Of a DNA stretch of 41,502 nt, positions 19,356 to 35,339 are shown in pieces. A program made the translations under genes and the position numbers. How positions within the stretch are numbered: position 1 is the stretch's first letter; every line of letters starts with the position of its first letter. Below the pieces are notes generated by a model that saw only the letters and a list, made by a program, of their open reading frames with translations, ran no database searches and was not told the DNA's origin. The stretch comes from an uncultured Clostridia bacterium (GTDB lineage Bacteria; Bacillota; Clostridia; TANB77; CAG-508), in contig CANQGV010000001.1 of assembly GCA_947623475.1 (NCBI GenBank), positions 1 to 41,502 of the forward strand, written 5' to 3'.

Positions 19356-20285
19356 TTATTGGTCTTCGTCAAAGCTTTTTACTTCTTTTTCTTTTGAATC
19401 TTTTATCATTTTTTTGCCTACAGTATCTCCTGATTGCACCATTTTACTGGCACTTCTAGTTCCTGTTGCTTTTTTAAATTGTTTTTTTTGAATTTTAAAA
19501 TTGTATAGTTGTTCTATTTTTGTAATTACACTTTCGTCTGCTCCTGCTTTTTCTAGCTCTTCTCTTTTTTCTATTATTTGTTTACATGTTTCTTTTATTT
19601 CTTCGTCTCTGTTTTGCAATTTTTCATAACATTTATTTAATAAGAAGTTTTTTAATGTATAACTTGCTGTTATGTCTTCATATTTTATTTCTTTCATTTC
19701 TAAGTCTGCCTCGTTATATTTTCCTCCTTTAACCTTTCTTAGGAATGTGTGTAAGTTATCTTCTTCAAATACTTCTTCTGGATTTTCCCTTGTTTTTTTT
19801 ATTTCGTTAATTGCCTCTTCTACCTGATCATAAACAGATTCTTTACCTATACTTTCTAAAACATTTTCTTCTTCTTCGTTTCTAGGATCTAATTCAGTCA
19901 TTGCTTGCAAATCTGATGTTATGTTTTTTCCTGTTTTTTCTTCATATCGTTTTATAATATTTTCTCTATCATAATATGCCATTTCTTCAAGCTCTGCTTT
20001 TATTTCTTCTTGACTTTTTCCTTCTTCTCTTAAAATTGCTTCTCTATGTTTTTTTAGTATATCTCCTCCTCTTATTGCATACAAATTTCCTTTTTTAGGT
20101 CTATGTTCTTCATCTATTCTTTCTTTTACTGATTCACTTAATGCCTTAGCTATATCTCCTTCAACACCATATTTATCTCTTCTAAAATTTATATTTTCTT
20201 CTCCTAGTTCTCTTATTGACCATTCTACATTTCTTCCTAATTCTTCTGCACATATTTCTCTAAATTCATCTTTTTCTCCGTACAA
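19356..20285 (-). CDS. acidic Glu/Lys-rich protein segment, likely the C-terminal continuation of the HEXXH protein after a +1 shift at 20280-20277
   Basis: Only an SD-less TTG is available as a start. The frame opens after a TAA five codons before the GGA at 20279. Confidence 0.55.
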   Translation of the reverse strand: MYGEKDEFREICAEELGRNVEWSIRELGEENINFRRDKYGVEGDIAKALSESVKERIDEEHRPKKGNLYAIRGGDILKKHREAILREEGKSQEEIKAELEEMAYYDRENIIKRYEEKTGKNITSDLQAMTELDPRNEEEENVLESIGKESVYDQVEEAINEIKKTRENPEEVFEEDNLHTFLRKVKGGKYNEADLEMKEIKYEDITASYTLKNFLLNKCYEKLQNRDEEIKETCKQIIEKREELEKAGADESVITKIEQLYNFKIQKKQFKKATGTRSASKMVQSGDTVGKKMIKDSKEKEVKSFDEDQ

Positions 20286-20844
20286 AAAATTCTTTTATTG
20301 CATCTAAATCTCTTCCCTTTGTTCTAAGTCCACCTAATATTGATTTTAATATATTTGCTTCAGGTCTATAATTGTAGTCTACAACAAAACCTCGTTTTTC
20401 TAATTTTTCATTTTCTTCTTTTGATATTCTAGGTATTTCTTTACCTTTTTGTAGATAATTATTTATACACATTTCAGCAAGTAGATTTGCCATAGCTTCA
20501 TCTATTATTCCTCCTCCATGTTGTTGTTTAGGCTCGTCTGCAATTGAATGTGCTAATTCGTGTATTGTGTTTGATACAGCCATTATTGTTCCTTTATATT
20601 CTTTAAGCCATTCTTCATTCCATAAAACTTTTCTTTCTTTTCTGTCAAAAAAAGCAATACCTTCTCCCATATCTTTTCCTTTTTCTAGCTCACATGTTAC
20701 ACTTCTTAACCTTATTTTTACAGAACTTGCTTCTTCTTCTCCATAAATGTCTCTGAAAAGTTCTTCAACCATTTCTTTAGCCACATCTAATAATTTTTCT
20801 TCTTCTTTTTCTAATTCTTTTCTTTCTTCTTCATTTATATACAT
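20266..20844 (-). CDS. HEXXH zinc-metallopeptidase-like protein (0-frame product 192 aa)
   Basis: HELAH at TIHELAHSIADE, followed by IIDEAMAN as a candidate third ligand Glu. No signal peptide. Confidence 0.65.
   Translation of the reverse strand: MYINEEERKELEKEEEKLLDVAKEMVEELFRDIYGEEEASSVKIRLRSVTCELEKGKDMGEGIAFFDRKERKVLWNEEWLKEYKGTIMAVSNTIHELAHSIADEPKQQHGGGIIDEAMANLLAEMCINNYLQKGKEIPRISKEENEKLEKRGFVVDYNYRPEANILKSILGGLRTKGRDLDAIKEFFVRRKR
20277..20280 (-). other. putative +1 recoding site CGG_A (context TTT-GTA-CGG-A)
   Basis: In-frame CGG four codons before the stop of ORF 20266..20844. GGA at 20279-20277 is in frame with ORF 19356..20285. Confidence 0.4.
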
Positions 20845-25247: not shown

Positions 25248-25448
25248 TTTAGTTTTCTCCTTTTTGTTAGTTTTGTGTTTTATTTTTGAGGGACAGATAT
25301 ACTCTTTTTTTCGTATTCTGCCCCTTCTTGTATTTTATACGCAAGTTTGTCTTTTGTCAAGCTTGTATTTATTGGCTTTAGTTGAAATTTTGGCGTTTTT
25401 GTGGTATCCTATATATAGGGAAAGTTTTGTTATATGAAGGAGATTTTT

Positions 25449-26147
25449 ATGGATAAGAATTATTATGAAATTCTAGAAATATCTACTTCAGCCTCTCAAG
25501 AAATTGTTGAGAAGGCTTATAAAACTTTGGTTAAAAAATACCACCCTGATTTACAAACAGGTACTAAGAAAACTGAATATGAAGAAAAGTTAAAACTTAT
25601 AAATGAAGCTTATGAAGTTCTTTCAGATCCTCAAAAGAGAAAATCTTATGATGAAACCCTTCCTAATAATAATATTTCTGCTGAGGATTATGAGAATTTA
25701 TATAGACAAAAAGAATATATGAAACAAAAAATTTCTCAAATGGAACAACAACAAAGAAATGGACAAACTGGTTATTCTAACCCTAATTATCAAAATAATA
25801 GAACTCAGACAAGTAATTATAATGATTATAGGGCTTCTCAACAAGAGTATATTAATAATATGAATGCTGCATATCAACAACAGGTTAATGATGCTATAAA
25901 TAAAGCTTATCATGATGCATATATTCAAGATTTGAGAAATAGAGGTTATAAAATTAAATATCATAGAAGTTGGAAAGATTATTTGGCTGCTTTTATAACA
26001 TTTTTGATTGTTGTTCTTATTTTAATTATTTTATGGCAGATTCCTTCTTTTAGAAATTATTTTATAAATTTGTATAATACAAATACTGTTGTGAGAATTT
26101 TAGCAGATTTCGTTATAAATATTTTTAATAGTTTTTCAGGTAAGTAA
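25449..26147 (+). CDS. J-domain (DnaJ-like) protein with Asn/Gln-rich linker and C-terminal transmembrane anchor
   Basis: NYYEILEIS...YHPD J-domain signature, a Q/N-rich middle and a hydrophobic [18 protein letters not shown] segment. A GAAGGAG SD precedes the ATG at 25449. Confidence 0.8.
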
Positions 26148-26190
26148 AAAGATGTTCAATTGCATATTTTGAACATCTTTTATTTTTTTT
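26148..26190. terminator. bidirectional intrinsic terminator; 3' end of the large minus-strand operon
   Basis: 12-bp stem AAAGATGTTCAA (26148-26159) / TTGAACATCTTT (26169-26180) followed by a T-run. Confidence 0.65.
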
Positions 26191-26824
26191 ATTCGATGAA
26201 TTCATTTGAGACAAATATATAACTATCTCCTTGTTTTTTTAATGTTACTTTTATTAACTTTGAGTCCGGATAATCTTTTAATTTTACATATACTATATAG
26301 TTGTCACCTTCTTTGACTCCCACTCTACAATTAACTTTTGAGTAACCTTCTCCAGAAAACGATTTTGCATATAATTCTCCATCTTCTATAAAAATCCAAT
26401 CTTTTAATTTTGACTCTATATCATTTATTTCTTTACCTGTTTTTTCTTTAATTAGATCTTTGACATCTTCTTCTTTCACAGCGACTAACAATGGAACTTG
26501 TGGCAATGTTCCAATTTCTTCCATAATCTTTTCATTGTATTCTTTTTTTTGATTATCTGATAGTTCTTTACTTATTCCTGCTCCTCTATATAATAGTTGA
26601 TTTATATTTATATCTGATGCATCTTGATATTCACAGAAAAGAAAACAATTATTTTTTTCGTCTTCCAAAAAATCCTTAACTTGATTTTTCTCCTCTTCTG
26701 TTAAATATGTTTCGCTTTCTTGTTTTTCTTCTTCTATTTTCTTTTGTTGATTTACTAATACTACAACAAATAAAACTATAACAAGTATACACGATATAAT
26801 TATATATATATTCTTTTTTTTCAT
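26189..26824 (-). CDS. signal-anchored hypothetical protein (211 aa), last gene of the operon
   Basis: MKKKNIYIIISCILVIVLFVVVLV anchor and an extracytoplasmic acidic domain. A GAGGA SD lies upstream. Confidence 0.6.
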   Translation of the reverse strand: MKKKNIYIIISCILVIVLFVVVLVNQQKKIEEEKQESETYLTEEEKNQVKDFLEDEKNNCFLFCEYQDASDININQLLYRGAGISKELSDNQKKEYNEKIMEEIGTLPQVPLLVAVKEEDVKDLIKEKTGKEINDIESKLKDWIFIEDGELYAKSFSGEGYSKVNCRVGVKEGDNYIVYVKLKDYPDSKLIKVTLKKQGDSYIFVSNEFIE

Positions 26825-26850
26825 AATTAAATCATTCCTCTTATATTTTT

Positions 26851-27873
26851 TTAAACTGTATATATAAAATAGTTCGCTACATTTTCATGCACAAAATTTT
26901 CATCAAGATACCAAATTTTATATCCTCCTACATCAAGAGGTTCTTTTGTTTGATGGGAAGTATGTTTAGCTGCTTGAGCCTCAGTTGTATTAGGATCTTT
27001 TATTAAAAATGATCCATTTTCATATCCACATATACATATAACATGTCCACTTCCTACTGGGAAGTAACTTCCAGAGTTACAAACAATCTGTGCTCCACTC
27101 TGTAATGCTTTTATTGCATCCTCTTTACTGTTAGATTGCGTCATTTTCAAATTAGCCAAACTAGGATATTTTGATGAAAACTCTGTAACGACTGATGTGT
27201 AAAGATCATAGTAAGTACCATCTGCAACAGTATAAGTACCATTAGCTAAACCAAATTGTGCAACTTCTATTGGAGATATTTCTTGATTAGCTAACTCAGA
27301 AAGCGCCATAGCAATAGCAGTAGGTCCACATCCAGAAGAACTCATTGAAAGCTCTGCAGGACCTTCTATATCTATTTGAGAAAAATTAAATCTTTTACCG
27401 AATTCTCCTGATACTGTTGTTGCTTCATCTTCTCCAAATCTAGCATAATTACCTTCAAATGTTTCTCTAAAACTACCTTGAACATTTTCATAATCAAAAC
27501 CATCTGTTAACCATGCATATGCTACTACAATAATTACTATTACTAGTATTATGCCTAACACAATCCATGTTACAGGATTAAATAATGCTGCTATAGCTGA
27601 TACAAGAGCATGTATCATATGAGCTACTAGTCGAGCAGCTCTAACAGCTGTTTGTACAGCCTTTCTTGCCATTTTTACAGCTTTTTGTGCTGTTTCTGCC
27701 GTTTTTTTTGCTCCGTCTGCTATCTTCCTAGCTCCTTGTACAGCTTTTTTACCAGTATCTACAGCTGATTTTCCTGCGTCTAGAACTTTTCCACCAGCAT
27801 CTACAGCACCTTTAGCTGCTCCACCAACTTGCTCTTGATCACTTTTGGGTGTTTTTTGTTCTTCTTCTCCCAT
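26851..27873 (-). CDS. membrane-anchored C39-like (papain-fold) cysteine peptidase with N-terminal basic heptad-repeat region
   Basis: SSSGCGPTAIAMAL (Cys) and GSGHVICICGYENGSFLIKDPN (His/Asp) match the peptidase_C39-like pattern. A central hydrophobic segment and an AAGGAAGG SD are present. Confidence 0.7.
   Translation of the reverse strand: MGEEEQKTPKSDQEQVGGAAKGAVDAGGKVLDAGKSAVDTGKKAVQGARKIADGAKKTAETAQKAVKMARKAVQTAVRAARLVAHMIHALVSAIAALFNPVTWIVLGIILVIVIIVVAYAWLTDGFDYENVQGSFRETFEGNYARFGEDEATTVSGEFGKRFNFSQIDIEGPAELSMSSSGCGPTAIAMALSELANQEISPIEVAQFGLANGTYTVADGTYYDLYTSVVTEFSSKYPSLANLKMTQSNSKEDAIKALQSGAQIVCNSGSYFPVGSGHVICICGYENGSFLIKDPNTTEAQAAKHTSHQTKEPLDVGGYKIWYLDENFVHENVANYFIYTV
27625..27816 (-). 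repeat. about nine in-frame 21-nt (heptad) repeats encoding (K/R)KAVxxA
   Basis: AKGAVDAG GKVLDAG KSAVDTG KKAVQGA RKIADGA KKTAETA QKAVKMA RKAVQTA VRAARLV, immediately before the TM segment. Confidence 0.6.
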
Positions 27874-27909: not shown

Positions 27910-29244
27910 TTAGAAGTTTACATATCCAAAAGATAATGTAAAGTCCATATCTTCTTTTAATTTAATCATAAATTGCATTTTACCACTGTAATCTTCATCT
28001 TTTTCTTCTGTTCCTTTTTCATATAAATAAATTTCTAAAATATATATATCACTTTGTCTGTCTACATTCTTTATTTTATATGTGTAATGTTTAGGAAAAT
28101 AATATTCTTTAAAGTAATCTGTTAATTTTTCTTCTGTTAAAGAGTGATTATCTTTAAATCCTTGATCTAATTTTCTATATATCGTATGATAATCTCTGTT
28201 ATTCAACATATCAATAACTCTTTGAGCATTTAAACTTACTTTATCCTCTTCAGAAGCATTATTGTAAAGCTCTTTATTTTCTTCTGTTAATATTGTATAT
28301 GTATCCAATTTTACAGTAAAGTCCATAACTGATTTAACATTAAATACCATCAAATTTTCATATTGATCTTTAGATACATACTCTTCATAGCCTTCTTGTT
28401 GTCTTTTTATGTACTGTACTGTACTTATTCCTGAAATTTCGTCTTTAAAACTTTCTACATATTTTTTGAAATTATCAACATTTTCAAATCTTTCGTTTCT
28501 ATATTCTTCATCCAAATATTCATAAGCTTTTTCAGGGTTATTTAACATCATATTTTTATATTTTTCTACATATTTTCCAACAAGTTCTCCATCATTTAAT
28601 GTTATTTCTGTATATGTATTTCTTGTATTTTTGTCTATGCTATTACTGTTCTTTTCTTCCTCTAAATTAAGTTCTTCTGTTGGTTTTACTGAATATGTTT
28701 TATTATTCTTATCTATTTTCATTATAAATTTTTCAGTTTTATTAATTTCTTCATTTGTTTCTTTATCTGTTGATTTCCAACTAACTTCTATTGCATAAAA
28801 TTCTATATTGTTATCAGCTTGTTTGACTTTTATATCATCTACCGAACATCTTTGAACTTCATTTGATGTAATGTTTATGAACTCTTCCAAATTATCTTCT
28901 GTTATTTTGTTTTCTTCTATATATTCTTTATCGATAAAATCCAATAATGCTCTTTTTTTATCTTCTTCGCTATATATTCTAAATATTTCAGCTGTTGTCT
29001 GTCTTCCTCCTAAAGCATTTTGTTCTGATTTTTTAGTTATATCTACATTAGCAAATGTTAAATATTTTTGAATATTACTTTGAACTGTACAATACATTTC
29101 TTCTGAGGTTACAGCTCCATCTTCTACCTCTATTTGATTTGGTTCTTTTTGTGCTTTTTTCATGTCAACTAATATAATTGTTATTACAATTATTCCTATA
29201 AGTAATATTCCTATTATATACATCATTGTTATTTTTTTATTCAT
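27910..29244 (-). CDS. signal-anchored hypothetical protein with NTF2-like/DUF4878-like sequence patterns
   Basis: The start is moved to the ATG at 29244 (MNKKITMMYIIGILLIGIIVITIILV), preceded by AAGGAG. Patterns such as EKAYEYLDEEYRNERFENVDNFKKYVESF are present. Confidence 0.6.
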   Translation of the reverse strand: MNKKITMMYIIGILLIGIIVITIILVDMKKAQKEPNQIEVEDGAVTSEEMYCTVQSNIQKYLTFANVDITKKSEQNALGGRQTTAEIFRIYSEEDKKRALLDFIDKEYIEENKITEDNLEEFINITSNEVQRCSVDDIKVKQADNNIEFYAIEVSWKSTDKETNEEINKTEKFIMKIDKNNKTYSVKPTEELNLEEEKNSNSIDKNTRNTYTEITLNDGELVGKYVEKYKNMMLNNPEKAYEYLDEEYRNERFENVDNFKKYVESFKDEISGISTVQYIKRQQEGYEEYVSKDQYENLMVFNVKSVMDFTVKLDTYTILTEENKELYNNASEEDKVSLNAQRVIDMLNNRDYHTIYRKLDQGFKDNHSLTEEKLTDYFKEYYFPKHYTYKIKNVDRQSDIYILEIYLYEKGTEEKDEDYSGKMQFMIKLKEDMDFTLSFGYVNF

Positions 29245-29260
29245 ATTAAAACTCCTTGTT

Positions 29261-32200
29261 CTATGAAAGTGAACCATATGCACCAAAAATTTCATTCCAG
29301 AAATCTATTTTCATTTCTACTTGATATGCTGTAAATTGTCCTCCTTCATAAGCTGTTACTGGTGCTCCATCTGCATGTTCTCCTCCAACACTTTGACATT
29401 TCGTTACAAATTCTTCATGTGTTTTATATATTTTTGTACAACCAGCTCTATCTGGATCCATATAATAAGCTCCTCCTGTTCCTGGTCCACCAAATCCATG
29501 AACTCCTAATGATGAATATACTGATTGCATTCCAGCTAATGATCCTGGTGGTCCATAACCTGTAGGATCACATCCTGCAGCTTCTCTTTCTTGAGCTAAT
29601 TGAGTTATTTCTCCTGCATAAGTTCCTCCTTCTTCATATTCATCTAATACTTTTGCATATGCTTTTACACCTTCTTCTACTGATGCAAAGCCTCTACCTG
29701 TATTTGATCCATTAAATACTCCTATTCCCCAATAATTATGTGTTCCTCCTCCTGCTATAAAGTTTTGTTCTTGCTTAGCAGTTACTACAACTAATTCAGG
29801 ATTTACGCCTGCAGCAACTGCTGTATCGTAAATTGATCCTGCTTTATCTGCAAAGTTAGTTGCAAATGATGCATTTGATTTTGATCTATAAGCATTTAAT
29901 GCTTCTATAAATTTTTCTCTACTCAATACAGGTTTATCCAATGGTATCATTCCTGGAGTCTCTGAGTTTCCTCCTTGAGAAGATTGTTGAAAACCAAATT
30001 CATCTGGAGAGTACTCATCATTAAAACTTATTCCTGACATTGAATAGTACTCTGATATTACTTTTGAATATAAATATTGAATTACCTCTACTAAATTTGC
30101 TGTTTTTAAATTTCCTTCTAAGGTAGCACATATCCATGTAACAAAATTGTTTGAAGCTGATCTTAATCCACTTTCTTTGTATAATTCTACAAAATGTCTA
30201 TAATTTTCATAAGCAAATCCCGTTGTAGAAGCATAATTATATGTTATTGAATTCGAATCTGTTTCAGTTGTTATATTTGTTGTTTTTGATGGTTTCTTTT
30301 CTGCTTGTTCTTGCTCTTGATTAGGTTGATCAATTATCCCTGTAGTATTATTTTTATTTTGCAAATCTCTTTGAAGTGCTTCTGCTCCTTTTTGTATATT
30401 TTCTTGTTGTCGTTGCTGTTCTAATAGGTCAGCATTTGCTTTAGTAGGTCCTCCTTTAAGTTTTTTAGCTGTTGCTTTTAAAATATTATCTGTTTTATAT
30501 TCTGCTACTTCTGTGTTTATTACCTTTTCTTTTCCTTTATTCTCTTCTAACATCTTTCTGTTTTTCATCGCTATTCTTATTGTTTCTGTAGACATCTTCC
30601 TGTCTTTTGTATTTAATCCTAATGGATTCATGTTTTCTAATGGATTATTTTTTTCTAAAAAGTTATATGGTCTTAATGGATTTGATTTATCTGTAGAAGG
30701 ATTTATTGGAGTAATTTTTTTGTTTGGATCTAAAGGCTCTATTTTTACTTCTGGCTCTGAAGAATTAGTAGGACCTTGTACAATTTTTTGTCCTGTATTT
30801 GTATCAATTTCTTCATTGTTCGATATAGTACTTGTTGTATGTGCAGGTGTAGTTTTTCTTGTTCCTAATACTTCTATATCTATTCCTGATCCAAGATTAC
30901 TGTCAGCACTGATAAGTTCTTCTGTCGCTCCTGGAAACAAATTTACATATCGTACAAACCAATTGTCTATAAATGTTACTTCTGGCTCTTGTTTTGTGCT
31001 TTCTGTTATGACTTCTTTTGTTTCTTCTTGTGGTTCTGTTTCTCCTGTTTGATTTCCTTCAGCATCATACGTTATTTCATTTACAGTCGTTTTCGTTATA
31101 GTTTTTTTAGTGGTTACTCCATCTTTAATTGTGACTACATATTGGCTATCTATTCCTAATTGTGCTAAATTTTTTGTAAATTCTACATCTTTCGAGTTTA
31201 CCAATACCGCTAATAAAAGTTCCATTGGCATTGTGTATTTGTTTAATGCTTTTCTAACTCCTACAGCTGTTTTTGAAACTGTAAATTTTTTATCTCCTTT
31301 TGAGTTGTCATATTCCCATGCTCCTGTTATAATATCTCTTGTTGAATTTAATGTATATACATATAAAGCTCTTTTATCACCTGTTTTTACATAACTATTA
31401 AAAGTTTTTTCATCAACATATGATAAATCATAATATGTTGAGTCTATGTATACTTCTTCAGTTTCTTCTTCTTCTTCGTCTTCTATATCTGTTTTTTCAA
31501 AGTGTCCATAATCTCCGTCTTCTCCTCCCCAAGTCCATCCATAAGACTCAAAAACTTTATATACAACTGATTCTTTATCTATAAAAGCTGCTTCTGCTTC
31601 ATTATTCCATGCTTCTCTGTGTTCTCTGTCTACATAGTATTGAGCATTGTATGTTGCTGTTGATGTTTTGTTAGTTGTTTTTGGATTATATCTTGGGTTT
31701 ATATCGATTGCATTTCCTGTTATATGTGCTGCTCCTCCTGAATTATCATAATATAAACAACATGTATTGTTACTATCTGCTGACATTTGTCCTAATTCAC
31801 TTCTGTTGCTTGTTCTTTTTATCTTTGATCTATCTATTGACGGTTTTCCTTCATTTTCTATTTTTAATTTATTTTCTTCATTTTTATTTTGATCTTCTTT
31901 TATCTGTGCATTATTTTTCCCCTGGTTAAGTTTAGCATTTTTTATTAATTCTTGTGCTTTTTTCTCTTGATCTGTTTTTTCTTCTTGTTTTGCAGCATCT
32001 GCATAAAACTTATCTGAGTCAAAACTATCTAAGAAGTTTTCTGCTATTTCTATACTAGCCATCGGATATTTTTTATCATATAATTCATAAAATATATTTA
32101 ATACATCTTCAACTAATTTTTTATTTACTATCATATGACCTTCATGAAGTTTAAGATCAAAATCATAATATGGTATTGATAGGTATGCAAGATTTGATGC

Positions 32201-34033
32201 ATTAACAGATCCTGATAGTGAGCCTCCTTTTATTGTACCTTTCATTGCTTCTGATAAATCCATTGCTTTTCCCATACCTGGAATTTCTGGTACTTTGTTG
32301 TAAACTTCATCATTTATTTTCTGAGCCTCATCACCTTCTTCATAAGCTCCTATACTTTTTTTAGGTGTTAATCTTCTTACTTTTACAGAGCCTTGAAATC
32401 TATTTTTTGGATCTTCTTTTATATTCTGATTTTCTCCTATTGTTATTTTAGCATTTTCATTATTACTACTTCCTGTTATGTTTTTCCATCCTGAGCCTGG
32501 CACTCCTGTTGGAGTATATACATTACCTTTTTTTGAGCCATTATTTGTTGCTCCTGCTATACGGTATATTCCTATTGGTCCTCTGCTCCATCCAGAAGCT
32601 TGGCCAGAAGGTGCTGGTGTTGATATTGCTGCAGTTGAACCTGCATTGTACCATACATCACTTCCCCCTTCATTACCTCCATATATTTGGGCATGTCCAC
32701 TAAATAATACTATATCTCCTGCTTCTACATTTTCTTGACTTACTGCTTCTGCCCAATCTGCTGCTTCAAATTCTTGTTTCATTTGATCTGCATATCTATT
32801 TTGAACATCATAACCTATTTCATTTAATACCCAATCTACATATGTTGTACAATCTACTGTTTTCCTTCCACTAGCTTCTGATTCTTCTACCGTCAGACTT
32901 GGGTTTGGACCATATGTATATCCATTTTCTATTATTGAATGTACATGTTGTGCTGCTGCTACAATATCTTTTTCTCCACTTGATGAACTAGAGCTACTTG
33001 TTGAACTTCCTGTTGATGAGCTATTTGATGTTGTAGTACTTGATGTTGACCCTCCTGTTGTACTACCTCCTCCTTTACCACAATAAAGTCCATCTCCTTT
33101 TACTGGACCATTCGGAGGATTATTATTATCTGCACTACATGTTGGCGAATTAACCTGTGCATCTGTATATAAGTGTAATGGGTCTATAGCTTCGTCTTCA
33201 CCTTCCAGATTTACTTGAAGGTGACAGTGTGGTCCTGTTGAATTTCCTGTTGATCCTGCTAATGCTATTGTTTGACCTGGTTTTACCTTATCTCCTACAT
33301 TTACTTTAATTTCTGAATTATGTCCATATGTAACTGTTGCTTTTTTTCCATTTACATTTCCATCTAATTCCATTACAACTGCAAGTCCATAACCATAATA
33401 ACTTCCTGCTACAGTAACTGTTCCTGCTGCTATGGAAACTATTTCATCTCCTGTACTTGCTGCTATATCCATTCCTTGGTGATGCGTAGACCCTACTCCT
33501 CCAGGGCTTGCTCTATCTGCTTTTATTGACGTTATAGCACTACCTCTTTCTTCAGGCGTTGTATGCTTTTTTACCGGCCATTCATATGTTCCCGTTCCTC
33601 CAGAACTCGATTTTTCTCCAGCTTTTTCGTTTCCTCCTGCTTCTGCTTCTGTTCCGTTAGATATTGGATTATCAGATGTTACTACCCCTCCAAAACTAGG
33701 GAATTCTGTAGCAATTTCTGCTTTTAACATTTGCTTAAAGTCATCAAAGTTTTCTATTCCTAAATTTGTATATTTTTCTTTGTCTTTTTTGTATATAGAG
33801 TCTAGTTTATCATCTATATCATCAACAAATTCAAGGTAATACCCCTTTTGTGCATCTCCTTTTACTTGAACACATTGAGCTACATCAATAACTGGCTCGT
33901 CTGCTTCTCCTGACTCTTCTTCAGTAACTCCAGATCCTTCTTTTACATCTTCTGCTAAAAATACTTCTTGCCAATCTGGCATATTTGCCGCTTCTGATAA
34001 ATCTTCAACAAATATATCTATGAAATTGGCCAT
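29261..34033 (-). CDS. giant multidomain peptidoglycan hydrolase (M23 + NlpC/P60-like + M15 + unknown central region + GH73/lysozyme-like); probably continues from ORF 34005..34415
   Basis: M23: HHQGMDIAAS...GPHCHLQV. NlpC/P60-like: VDCTTYVDWVL...GDIVLFSGHAQIYGG. M15 (LAS): AAHITGNAIDI...GDYGHFE. C-terminal GVNPELVVVTAKQEQNF...NYWGIG. The ATG at 34033 lies just after GGTGGAGG. The track start at 34048 is a GTG. Confidence 0.85.
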   Translation of the reverse strand: MANFIDIFVEDLSEAANMPDWQEVFLAEDVKEGSGVTEEESGEADEPVIDVAQCVQVKGDAQKGYYLEFVDDIDDKLDSIYKKDKEKYTNLGIENFDDFKQMLKAEIATEFPSFGGVVTSDNPISNGTEAEAGGNEKAGEKSSSGGTGTYEWPVKKHTTPEERGSAITSIKADRASPGGVGSTHHQGMDIAASTGDEIVSIAAGTVTVAGSYYGYGLAVVMELDGNVNGKKATVTYGHNSEIKVNVGDKVKPGQTIALAGSTGNSTGPHCHLQVNLEGEDEAIDPLHLYTDAQVNSPTCSADNNNPPNGPVKGDGLYCGKGGGSTTGGSTSSTTTSNSSSTGSSTSSSSSSSGEKDIVAAAQHVHSIIENGYTYGPNPSLTVEESEASGRKTVDCTTYVDWVLNEIGYDVQNRYADQMKQEFEAADWAEAVSQENVEAGDIVLFSGHAQIYGGNEGGSDVWYNAGSTAAISTPAPSGQASGWSRGPIGIYRIAGATNNGSKKGNVYTPTGVPGSGWKNITGSSNNENAKITIGENQNIKEDPKNRFQGSVKVRRLTPKKSIGAYEEGDEAQKINDEVYNKVPEIPGMGKAMDLSEAMKGTIKGGSLSGSVNASNLAYLSIPYYDFDLKLHEGHMIVNKKLVEDVLNIFYELYDKKYPMASIEIAENFLDSFDSDKFYADAAKQEEKTDQEKKAQELIKNAKLNQGKNNAQIKEDQNKNEENKLKIENEGKPSIDRSKIKRTSNRSELGQMSADSNNTCCLYYDNSGGAAHITGNAIDINPRYNPKTTNKTSTATYNAQYYVDREHREAWNNEAEAAFIDKESVVYKVFESYGWTWGGEDGDYGHFEKTDIEDEEEEETEEVYIDSTYYDLSYVDEKTFNSYVKTGDKRALYVYTLNSTRDIITGAWEYDNSKGDKKFTVSKTAVGVRKALNKYTMPMELLLAVLVNSKDVEFTKNLAQLGIDSQYVVTIKDGVTTKKTITKTTVNEITYDAEGNQTGETEPQEETKEVITESTKQEPEVTFIDNWFVRYVNLFPGATEELISADSNLGSGIDIEVLGTRKTTPAHTTSTISNNEEIDTNTGQKIVQGPTNSSEPEVKIEPLDPNKKITPINPSTDKSNPLRPYNFLEKNNPLENMNPLGLNTKDRKMSTETIRIAMKNRKMLEENKGKEKVINTEVAEYKTDNILKATAKKLKGGPTKANADLLEQQRQQENIQKGAEALQRDLQNKNNTTGIIDQPNQEQEQAEKKPSKTTNITTETDSNSITYNYASTTGFAYENYRHFVELYKESGLRSASNNFVTWICATLEGNLKTANLVEVIQYLYSKVISEYYSMSGISFNDEYSPDEFGFQQSSQGGNSETPGMIPLDKPVLSREKFIEALNAYRSKSNASFATNFADKAGSIYDTAVAAGVNPELVVVTAKQEQNFIAGGGTHNYWGIGVFNGSNTGRGFASVEEGVKAYAKVLDEYEEGGTYAGEITQLAQEREAAGCDPTGYGPPGSLAGMQSVYSSLGVHGFGGPGTGGAYYMDPDRAGCTKIYKTHEEFVTKCQSVGGEHADGAPVTAYEGGQFTAYQVEMKIDFWNEIFGAYGSLS

Positions 34034-34415
34034 TCCGAGGGCCTCCACCTAAATCTTCGACTACATAAACTTCTTCTCCTATTACTACTGCATCTCCCAT
34101 TTCTAGTCCATTTGGATCTCCACTTATGTTTATTGCACAAGTTCTATGTGCTGTTGCTTCTCCACTTCCTCCTGCTATTTGTCTAGATCCAGGAGGAGTG
34201 TTATCTGCAGGTGAATAATGTGTTATTCTATATTGCCCTAAAGACCTTCCTTTTTTTCCTGTTACTGTTCCTTTTGTTGTAGTTGCGTAATCTTTATCAC
34301 ATAATCCTGCTTTAACCTTTTTCATAAAAGGAGGTAAAAAAACAGTTAATGTAATTACTGTAGTTACTATTGCGATTATTTTTATAATAATATTACGTTT
34401 TTTATTATGTTCCAT
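34005..34415 (-). CDS. signal-anchored 3D (MltA-type DPBB) domain segment (0-frame product 136 aa), probable N-terminus of the giant hydrolase
   Basis: The TM anchor IIIKIIAIVTTVITLTVFL, then YRITHYSPADNTPPGSRQIAGGSGEATAHRTCAINISGD...GDAVVIGEEVYVVEDLGGG matches the 3D-domain pattern but lacks the last Asp strand in the 0 frame. Confidence 0.7.
   Translation of the reverse strand: MEHNKKRNIIIKIIAIVTTVITLTVFLPPFMKKVKAGLCDKDYATTTKGTVTGKKGRSLGQYRITHYSPADNTPPGSRQIAGGSGEATAHRTCAINISGDPNGLEMGDAVVIGEEVYVVEDLGGGPRNGQFHRYIC
34034..34037 (-). other. putative +1 recoding site CGG_A (context GGA-GGC-CCT-CGG-A)
   Basis: In-frame CGG in the 3D-domain ORF. GGA at 34036-34034 and ATG at 34033 are in frame with the giant ORF, which then reads ANFIDIFVEDLSEAANM, the missing 3D strand. 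Confidence 0.5.
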
Positions 34416-34433
34416 ATATTTTTACCTCCTTCT

Positions 34434-35339
34434 CTATAATTCTAAATTAGCTTCTGTATAAGAATAATTTAATCCTTGTTCATAGTTGTCTAAGTTCTCT
34501 ATCATTTTTTTAATTGTAAGTGTTTCAAGTTTTAGTCCTTCTCTACTTGTTGTATAAAATTTTAATGGTATTTGCTTTGCCTGTCCTGGTTTTACTGTTA
34601 CATCTTCTTTTGATAATTCTGATACGGAAAAATAATAATTAACTCTATTATTATCTGTTATGTATATATTTCTATCTGAAAGCATTGGATCTAATATTGC
34701 TGTTTTTTTAGATTGATTTATAGCTGATATATTTATTATTGTATAATCTTTAAATATGTCCATTGTATCTATTCTTACTTTAAAAGTTCCTTCGCTTTGT
34801 GTGTTTTCAAATTTTATTCTTTCTATGAGTTTTGCAATATTTAATTTACCGTTTTTTATTGTGTAAAAATCTTCAGCATATTTTTCTTTTATGTATTTTC
34901 CAGATGACATTATATCGTCTCTTATTTCAACTTTGTATGTATCACCTGACCATACTTGGAAACCACATGTTTTAGGATTTGTGAAATTCAAATCACAATA
35001 ATCATATTTAAATCTTTCTACTGTCGGATATAACGCTTCTTTACATTCGTCTGATAATAGGCTATATGCTTCTTCATAATACTTCATATTGCAGTAATCG
35101 GTAAAAGTTTTTAATAATGATGTTTCTCTTTCGTATAATTTTGAACTTTTCTTTTCATTTGATACTTCTGATATATCTCTTCCATAATCAACACTTCTTT
35201 TTGCATTTTCTTGCTCAGCATTTTTCCTTTTAGCTACTTGGTTTAATAATTGAATAAATATAAGTATTATTGCAACTATACCTATTATTTTAAAAATATC
35301 CCTTTTATTCTCATAAAAAAACCTTCTTAATTTCTCCAT
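34434..35339 (-). CDS. signal-anchored hypothetical protein (NTF2-like region followed by a beta-sandwich-like region)
   Basis: TM segment IFKIIGIVAIILIFIQLL. FTDYCNMKYYEEAYSLLSDECKEALYP resembles NTF2/DUF4878-type lipoprotein domains. The C-terminal VTVKPGQAKQIPLKFYT resembles DUF4352-type Ig-like domains. Confidence 0.6.
   Translation of the reverse strand: MEKLRRFFYENKRDIFKIIGIVAIILIFIQLLNQVAKRKNAEQENAKRSVDYGRDISEVSNEKKSSKLYERETSLLKTFTDYCNMKYYEEAYSLLSDECKEALYPTVERFKYDYCDLNFTNPKTCGFQVWSGDTYKVEIRDDIMSSGKYIKEKYAEDFYTIKNGKLNIAKLIERIKFENTQSEGTFKVRIDTMDIFKDYTIINISAINQSKKTAILDPMLSDRNIYITDNNRVNYYFSVSELSKEDVTVKPGQAKQIPLKFYTTSREGLKLETLTIKKMIENLDNYEQGLNYSYTEANLEL

Follow-up and report, generated by a model that had tools for sequence, protein, structure and literature searches.

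A predicted membrane-anchored, multi-module cell wall hydrolase of uncultured Clostridia and its cassette-swapping chromosomal family

The DNA analysed here, referred to as the window, is a contig of 41,502 nucleotides from an uncultured Clostridia bacterium (GenBank assembly GCA_947623475.1, CANQGV010000001.1), and it carries on its minus strand a gene which, judged from its sequence, encodes one membrane-anchored protein of approximately 1,717 residues read through a +1 frame junction at a CGG codon. The protein bears five types of module predicted to cut the cell wall, namely a 3D module, a Peptidase M23 module, an NlpC/P60-type module, a Peptidase M15_4 module and a C-terminal lysozyme-like module, and it belongs to a family whose members exchange such modules on a constant scaffold. 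Five modules are normal for this family, as its large members bear four to seven each; the novelty lies in the family and not in the window's single protein, and no description of the family was found in the literature. The probable role of the hydrolase is that of the VirB1-type subunit which breaches the wall for a type IV secretion system (T4SS) encoded at a fixed chromosomal site near the origin.

The hydrolase gene and its enzyme modules

Under standard reading the gene appears as two open reading frames (ORFs), of which the shorter provides the membrane anchor and opens the 3D domain, covering two thirds of it; the remainder of this domain continues one base on, in the frame of the longer ORF (Table 1). 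The two are taken as one protein because a strong Shine-Dalgarno sequence stands before ATG 34415, because the sole anchor and two thirds of the 3D domain are encoded ahead of the junction, and because the CGG pattern is genome-wide; on inspection of the sequence, no Shine-Dalgarno precedes the internal GTG 34048, which falls within the 3D domain. The CGG statistics cover the whole metagenome-assembled genome (MAG; 1.24 Mb, 73% complete), of which the window is the entire contig C1, and compare 53 in-frame CGG codons having at least 80 open codons upstream with 12 control codons. The median number of open codons downstream in the codon's own frame was 9 after an in-frame CGG versus 19.5–163 after the control codons, while in the +1 frame it was 69 versus 5–12; an own frame closing within 30 codons together with a +1 frame open for at least 50 was seen at 49% of in-frame CGG codons and at 1–7% of controls. 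Copies of the hydrolase gene in relatives contain CGG +1 junctions at six different positions (L010, L011, L019, L030, L032 and L040). Since the pattern spans the genome and is met again in these copies, the split is, on sequence grounds, a trait of the lineage's decoding and not decay of the hydrolase gene. Sequencing error as the origin of the split is rejected in view of the genome-wide pattern. Apart from the CGG junction, the 5.1 kb of the gene has no interrupting stop, and orthologues are intact in all 20 of the same-genus genomes examined. Genes of this lineage become mis-annotated as broken unless CGG +1 junctions are read through, as the hydrolase gene illustrates. Two further in-frame CGG codons in the window, both on the minus strand, likewise lie at +1 junctions: that at 38365–38367 links two ORFs (871 and 220 aa) belonging to a polytopic paralogue, and that at 20278–20280 links the ORFs 20266..20844 and 19356..20285.

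From the N-terminus, the order of the protein is membrane anchor, 3D, head, M23, Ser/Thr linker, NlpC/P60, FQG motif, M15_4, central module, disordered linker, preC and C-terminal lysozyme-like module. The original prediction, made from the letters alone, had placed five types of wall-cleaving module in this polypeptide, and profile evidence was found for all five. The M23 module is the clearest, with 80.4 bits to PF01551 against a Pfam cut-off of 28.7 (E 1.1e-22), and among solved structures it comes closest to the active LytM fragment 2b44 (E 4e-15); the HQGMD, YGHNS and HCH motifs align to HYGVD, YMHNN and HVH of LytM, with the zinc ligands and the catalytic His all kept. It is followed by the Ser/Thr-rich linker, present as anticipated, and by the NlpC/P60-type Cys-His module (residues 394–459), which scores 22.1 bits within the whole protein and 25.7 bits when taken alone, the Pfam cut-off being 23. 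Its pattern of Cys, His and a third polar residue is also found by alignment in the relative P0005; it has no significant match among PDB sequences, Spr/MepS appearing only at E 0.3–0.5. The M15_4 module (residues 773–852) matches PF13539 with 43.4–45.2 bits against a cut-off of 25 (E 5.4e-11), and its zinc ligands, H-x6-D and the final His, are in place; a search of PDB sequences gave no significant match to it. The splitting of this module by a Lys/Asn/Glu-rich insertion was also foreseen correctly: its N-terminal lobe (approximately residues 605–684) is set off by an insert of 67 aa at 31796–31996, which P0005 lacks, the two halves there being contiguous.

The upstream 3D module could be traced only through the family, as the window's copy alone, even when joined across the junction, matches neither Pfam (PF06725) nor PDB sequences. 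It does match the corresponding module in family members (up to 6e-20), 9 of the 20 aligned 3D modules of the family match PF06725 (up to 2.3e-18), and a profile of the family's 3D modules matches solved YuiC at 1.7e-8. The second and third Asp residues are invariant (in VEDLG before the junction and FIDIF after it); the first classical Asp, a position variable across the family, is replaced by Asn in the window's copy, which is one of the weak points of the set of modules. In the M23, NlpC/P60, M15_4 and C-terminal modules the predicted catalytic residues are in place.

The C-terminal module, proposed earlier to be GH73/lysozyme-like and to be followed by a Gly/Cys-containing tail, is conserved up to the last residue of the protein, and the tail is part of it; Glu1427 and Glu1568 are invariant in 31 diverse sequences. 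The signals that tie it to GH73 are weak but concordant. A profile search of PDB sequences with this module gave the GH73 enzyme Auto (3fi7) as its sole match, at E 0.0037 and spanning the catalytic Glu, with Glu1427 aligned to the ALES Glu of Auto; Pfam Glucosaminidase (PF01832) scored 17.1 bits (E 0.0088), under the cut-off of 30.2; and hhalign against the genuine GH73 module of the relative P0094 aligned Glu1427, at the IIES Glu of P0094, and the N-x-[FW]-G turn. A phmmer search of PDB sequences with the module found no match. Its AlphaFold model, built on 18 sequences, is all-alpha, with a predicted local distance difference test score (pLDDT) of 83.6 and a predicted template modelling score of 0.85. 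Foldseek gave no match to this model below E 0.02; at E 0.02 and above, all 50 PDB matches listed and most of the named viral ones are lysozyme-like enzymes, and the best local matches are GH73 enzymes over 110–130 residues. The alignment with GH73 enzymes (Auto/Lmo1076 3fi7, AtlE and LytB) involves the N-terminal half of the module and takes in the catalytic Glu together with the N-x-[FW]-G turn; beyond this, the window's module has an extra conserved half of approximately 110 residues with the second invariant Glu. We take the module for a putative new lysozyme-fold family that stands closest to GH73 and has a further conserved half. The GH73-like module also occurs without the scaffold, directly after M23 in proteins of approximately 480 aa from Bacilli MAGs (L021–L023), and many representatives bear it at the C-terminus of otherwise different proteins.

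Scaffold, payload slots and the cassette-swapping family

Between the M15_4 and C-terminal modules the original prediction had seen an uncharacterised centre of about 480 aa. This centre has no Pfam match, and it splits into the central module, a disordered linker and the helical preC piece. An exhaustive search with residues 855–1595 returned 488 representative matches, which fall into separate blocks corresponding to the central module, preC and the C-terminal module; word-indexed searches retrieved few relatives. The AlphaFold model of the central module (13 sequences) is poor, with a pLDDT of 58.5 and meaningless Foldseek matches (template modelling scores of 0.08–0.18). Head, central module and preC recur in relatives with different payloads, and F, Q, G, R, P, K and G of the FQG motif are invariant or nearly so in 37 members; together, head, FQG motif, central module and preC form one conserved, non-catalytic scaffold.

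At least 15 enzyme families are carried by the 37 scaffold proteins over which Pfam matches were tallied. Amidase_3 is the most frequent (15 of 37), followed by M15_4 (13), NlpC/P60 (10) and Phage_lysozyme2 (8); M23, C39_2, GDSL esterase and 3D are each found in 7, GH73 in 6, Beta-lactamase2 in 5, GH3, CHAP and Phage_lysozyme in 3 each, and Hydrolase_2 (SleB-like) and Amidase_5 in 2 each. To map the slots, orthologues were rebuilt in 20 genomes of the window's genus and modules were placed with exemplars; the order of the scaffold is constant across these genomes, and the payload differs widely within the genus. Payload slots lie before the head, from the head to the FQG motif, on either side of the central module, after preC and at the C-terminus. 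The 'glycosidase slot' after preC holds a GH73-like module, Phage_lysozyme2 or GH24, and the C-terminal slot of the family holds NlpC/P60 or C39_2. L035 reaches seven enzyme modules, while L037 and P0094 have the module order of the window, P0094 filling the corresponding slot with a genuine Pfam GH73. The family can be regarded as a naturally occurring collection of wall-cutting cassettes, with defined slots for their insertion, and it adds an undescribed lysozyme-like module and three undescribed scaffold modules.

The C39_2 type, fused to the giant hydrolase as a cassette in 7 of the 37 relatives, is present in the window as a separate gene two genes downstream (26851–27873, minus), whose 340-aa product combines Peptidase_C39_2 with a membrane helix and an N-terminus rich in Gly, Ala and Lys. 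In pairwise comparison, the resemblance of this product to the C-terminus of P0004 is confined to the Cys and His motifs.

Table 1. Positions of the hydrolase gene, its parts and neighbouring or related genes. Residue numbers are those of P0001; adding 122 gives P0009.
Feature	Position	Strand	Remarks
Whole hydrolase gene	29261..34415	minus	1,717 aa (P0009) when CGGA at 34037-34034 is read as one Gly; stop 29261-29263
Long ORF P0001	29261..34048	minus	1,595 aa; opens at GTG 34048
Short upstream ORF P0002	34005..34415	minus	136 aa; end overlapped by P0001
Shine-Dalgarno AGGAGG	34425..34430	minus	9 nt ahead of ATG 34415; read directly
+1 frame junction CCT-CGG-A	34034..34037	minus	Genome-wide CGG statistics and relatives' junctions
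N-terminal membrane anchor NIIIKIIAIVTTVITLTVFLPPF	34326..34394	minus	Sole anchor of the protein; relatives P0004 and P0005 likewise begin with an anchor
Divergent 3D module (YuiC/MltA-like double-psi beta-barrel)	33920..34259	minus	Straddles the frame junction
'Head' scaffold module VQVKGDAQKGYYLEFVDDIDDKL...FPSFGG	33674..33892	minus	Residues 53-125; conserved among 45 representatives
Peptidase M23 module	33182..33484	minus	Residues 189-289; HQGMD 33467-33481, YGHNS 33314-33328, HCH 33221-33229
Ser/Thr/Gly-rich linker	32975..33073	minus	Sequence composition
NlpC/P60-type Cys-His module	32558..32971	minus	Cys in VDCTTY 32840-32857, His in SGHAQIY 32681-32701, Asn in WYNAGS
FQG motif FQGSVKVRRLTPKKSIG	32348..32398	minus	Most conserved stretch of the family; FQGxxxxRRxTPxKxIG
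Peptidase M15_4 (LAS-type, VanY-like) module	31481..32236	minus	HITGNAID 31703-31726, YGHFE 31496-31510
Central scaffold module	30929..31471	minus	Residues ~860-1040; mixed alpha/beta
Thr/Asn/Lys/Glu-rich linker	30209..30928	minus	Poorly conserved, modelled as disordered; NPL-rich stretch 30611-30682
Helical 'preC' scaffold piece (FVELYKESG...KTANLVEVIQYLYSK)	29963..30205	minus	Residues 1282-1362
C-terminal lysozyme-like, distantly GH73-like module	29264..29962	minus	Residues 1363-1595; Glu1427 (29768-29770), Glu1568 (29345-29347)
739-aa polytopic membrane protein, T4SS_pilin-like hairpin (VirB6-like position)	35354..37573	minus	Upstream neighbour
301-aa membrane-anchored protein, no known family	34434..35339	minus	Upstream neighbour, syntenic
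~445-aa membrane-anchored protein (461-aa ORF as listed)	27910..29295	minus	Downstream neighbour, syntenic
VirD4-type coupling protein (other contigs)	G001:C1:121286-122476; G003:C18:70354-71556; G000:C6:22380-23573		PF02534

Chromosomal setting and likely function

The order of polytopic protein, ~300-aa protein, hydrolase and ~450-aa protein is kept in at least 13 MAGs, in at least 9 of which a convergent DnaJ-domain gene follows the cluster. In the window the DnaJ-domain gene lies at 25434–26147 (plus), separated from the 461-aa gene by two extra genes (26189–27873); beyond the DnaJ gene, the two loci inspected have a large ORF of BcrAD/DUF2229 size, as the window does. As listed, the 461-aa ORF begins inside the hydrolase gene, a likelier start being ATG 29243 after AAGGAG (MNKKITMMYIIG...), and its family gives only a faint hint of DUF4864. 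Upstream, relatives carry yidC, jag, mnmE, mnmG, rsmG, parA, parB and DUF4446, followed by three T4SS_pilin (VirB2-like) genes, PrgI, a membrane protein of ~400 aa and a VirB4-like ATPase of ~655 aa which matches P-loop_TraG, DUF87 and AAA_10. In three genomes dnaA is 13 kb ahead of the pilins, and the hydrolase gene is approximately 20 kb from dnaA. A single copy of the central module per genome was found in 51 of the 77 genomes belonging to the window's family (28 of 33 of the genus) and in 2 of 123 genomes from other families of the order; its carriers are 1.0–2.0 Mb in size and nearly all 95–100% complete. The cluster is a fixed chromosomal locus and not a mobile element, the latter being ruled out by the conserved flanks. 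A VirD4-type coupling protein (PF02534, 264–278 bits) was found in all four genomes examined, 45–50 kb from the cluster where both share a contig, and two relaxase families, the only two covered by the search, are absent from G000 and G001. Long frames with T4SS_pilin-like hairpins on contigs C80 (916 and 375 aa) and C141 (379 aa) of the fragmented MAG G000 are probably further paralogues of the polytopic protein.

That the hydrolase serves as the VirB1-type subunit of this secretion system is the reading we favour, with some reserve, because the gene order mirrors ConG-CwlT and PrgH..PrgK and because the build of an anchor followed by hydrolases matches PrgK. VirB1-like hydrolases interact with VirB8-like proteins and are thought to breach the wall for T4SS assembly (PMC11753425, PMC11323569). 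The five wall-cutting modules would be carried by the non-catalytic scaffold, strung on flexible linkers, with the 3D/YuiC-like and C-terminal GH73-like modules acting on glycan strands and the M23 endopeptidase, NlpC/P60 cysteine peptidase and M15_4 zinc peptidase acting on peptides. The scaffold may dock the protein onto the neighbouring membrane proteins, and the thick wall would be opened locally, allowing the secretion machine to assemble or to reach the surface; we infer these enzymatic activities, the docking and the link to secretion from anatomy, family and synteny.

Several points weigh against this assignment. The 3D and GH73-like modules fall below Pfam family thresholds on their own, and profiles of the 301-aa and 461-aa flanking proteins found no solved relative, VirB8-like ones included. 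The window's contig ends ahead of any ATPase, PrgI or small pilin gene, leaving the link to a T4SS to rest on relatives; a search of the window's 73%-complete MAG for the cluster's ATPase, PrgI and pilins retrieved only an ATPase of 26% identity on contig C146. PrgK also sets a cautionary precedent, as two of its three predicted domains are inactive (PMC11323569) and the activities here are predicted. Lastly, the radical turnover of payload within one genus is unexpected for an enzyme acting only on its own, presumably stable, wall.

This last point, with scaffold and synteny fixed throughout, speaks for an outward-directed weapon or feeding tool that would attack the walls of other bacteria (partners, hosts or prey), its cassettes tracking target wall chemistries. 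The breadth of the enzyme families, which include GH3, beta-lactamase-like, GDSL esterase and SleB-like types, points in the same direction, as do the small genomes of the carriers and the same layout in Patescibacteria, with an origin-proximal T4SS, pilin arrays and no relaxase beside it (PMC12102498). We nevertheless hold such a role to be unlikely, given that the protein is anchored in its own membrane with neither a release signal nor an immunity-like small gene seen beside it, that the organisms carry sporulation genes and are not known epibionts, and that ordinary autolysins and phage lysins, too, commonly shuffle their modules. Similarly doubtful is an inter-bacterial contact organelle, in which a domesticated T4SS and the cassette-swapping enzyme would together open the walls of other bacteria in order to attach, feed or capture DNA; if true, it would parallel the Patescibacteria, with an enzyme payload evolving to match target walls. 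The substrate range of the hydrolase would show whether the T4SS of these uncultured gut Clostridia works on their own or on other cells' walls.

The remaining explanations are less probable still. A housekeeping autolysin with a part in growth, cell separation, sporulation or germination, merely adjoining secretion genes, would account for a single-copy gene in 51 of the 77 genomes at a fixed chromosomal position near the origin, and for the SleB-like Hydrolase_2 of some members in a lineage with spore genes. It is nonetheless improbable: at all loci examined the gene is strictly co-linear with the VirB6-like gene and two membrane proteins, as in ConG-CwlT and PrgH..PrgK; in a third of the genomes of the family the gene is absent or too diverged for detection; and such payload turnover is unusual for a core autolysin. 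A decaying, frameshifted pseudogene whose modules are degenerate binding domains is suggested by the two ORFs of the standard reading, the replaced first Asp of the 3D motif and the precedent of a degenerate module in the LytM domain of PrgK (PMC11323569), but it is very hard to sustain for a gene with a single +1 break at a CGG like the genome's other in-frame CGG codons, no further stop, orthologues intact throughout the genus genomes examined, and the LytM-type zinc and catalytic residues, NlpC/P60 Cys and His, M15 H/D/H and both invariant Glu residues kept. Least credible of all is a prophage or tailocin tail lysin or a tape-measure-like protein. The PHROG endolysin and tape-measure matches of the hydrolase all run through its M23 part, and relatives do carry Phage_lysozyme2 and Phage_lysozyme cassettes; however, the 8 flanking cluster ORFs that were scanned include no match to a PHROG capsid, portal or terminase, the only PHROG matches among the neighbours are weak tape-measure ones in the 340-aa protein, and in many species the locus holds a fixed place between housekeeping genes.

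Comparison with known systems

Polyvalent proteins (Iyer et al. 2017, PMC5512222) resemble the window's family in being giant polypeptides with 2–15 domains reshuffled between relatives, and some carry domains of lysozyme, SpoIID-like or DD-peptidase type with which to breach peptidoglycan (PMC5512222). They differ in combining disparate activities on DNA, proteins and nucleotides and in being thought to be injected with the element's DNA (PMC5512222), whereas in the window's family every enzyme module detected is envelope-directed, the protein is membrane-anchored, and the gene is chromosomal, near-core and syntenic.

The chromosomal T4SS of Patescibacteria is alike in having an MPF-FATA-like cluster near dnaA, tandem VirB2-like pilins, no adjacent relaxase and small genomes (PMC12102498). 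There epibiotic growth depends on the T4SS, and a peptidase as well as a lysozyme homologue, both adjoining virB4, are essential (PMC12102498). Patescibacteria are, however, another phylum in comparison with these spore-gene-bearing Clostridia; most of their classes have VirB1 homologues that are not closely tied to virB4, and no scaffolded multi-enzyme protein has been described there (PMC12102498).

Among conjugation hydrolases, PrgK of pCF10 from Enterococcus faecalis is built similarly, with an N-terminal anchor followed by several hydrolase modules including M23/LytM and Cys-His (CHAP/NlpC) types (PMC11323569). It is encoded among VirB3-, VirB4-, VirB6- and VirB8-like genes (PMC11323569), of which the window has only the VirB6-like neighbour; PrgI, a VirB4-like ATPase and pilins are seen in the clusters of relatives, and no VirB8-like protein was recognised. 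PrgK has three modules, of which SLT alone is active and the LytM site is degenerate, whereas the window's protein has five with an intact M23 site, 3D and GH73-like modules standing in place of SLT; PrgK is plasmid-borne and the window's gene is chromosomal and vertically inherited. CwlT (ICEBs1), TcpG (pCW3) and TraG (pIP501) likewise pair a glycan-cutting with a peptidase module directly after a VirB6-like gene (PMC11753425, PMC12102498). They are two-module proteins of 300–400 residues, in contrast to five modules in 1,717 residues here, and no cassette turnover on a scaffold is reported for them. The comparison with conjugation hydrolases made in the original prediction fits the gene order, but the cluster is chromosomally fixed. 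Known wall hydrolases of secretion systems have two or three modules, and within the window's family, with four to seven, five are ordinary. The family of the window differs from the conjugation hydrolases in its conserved scaffold, its payload slots and its chromosomal inheritance.

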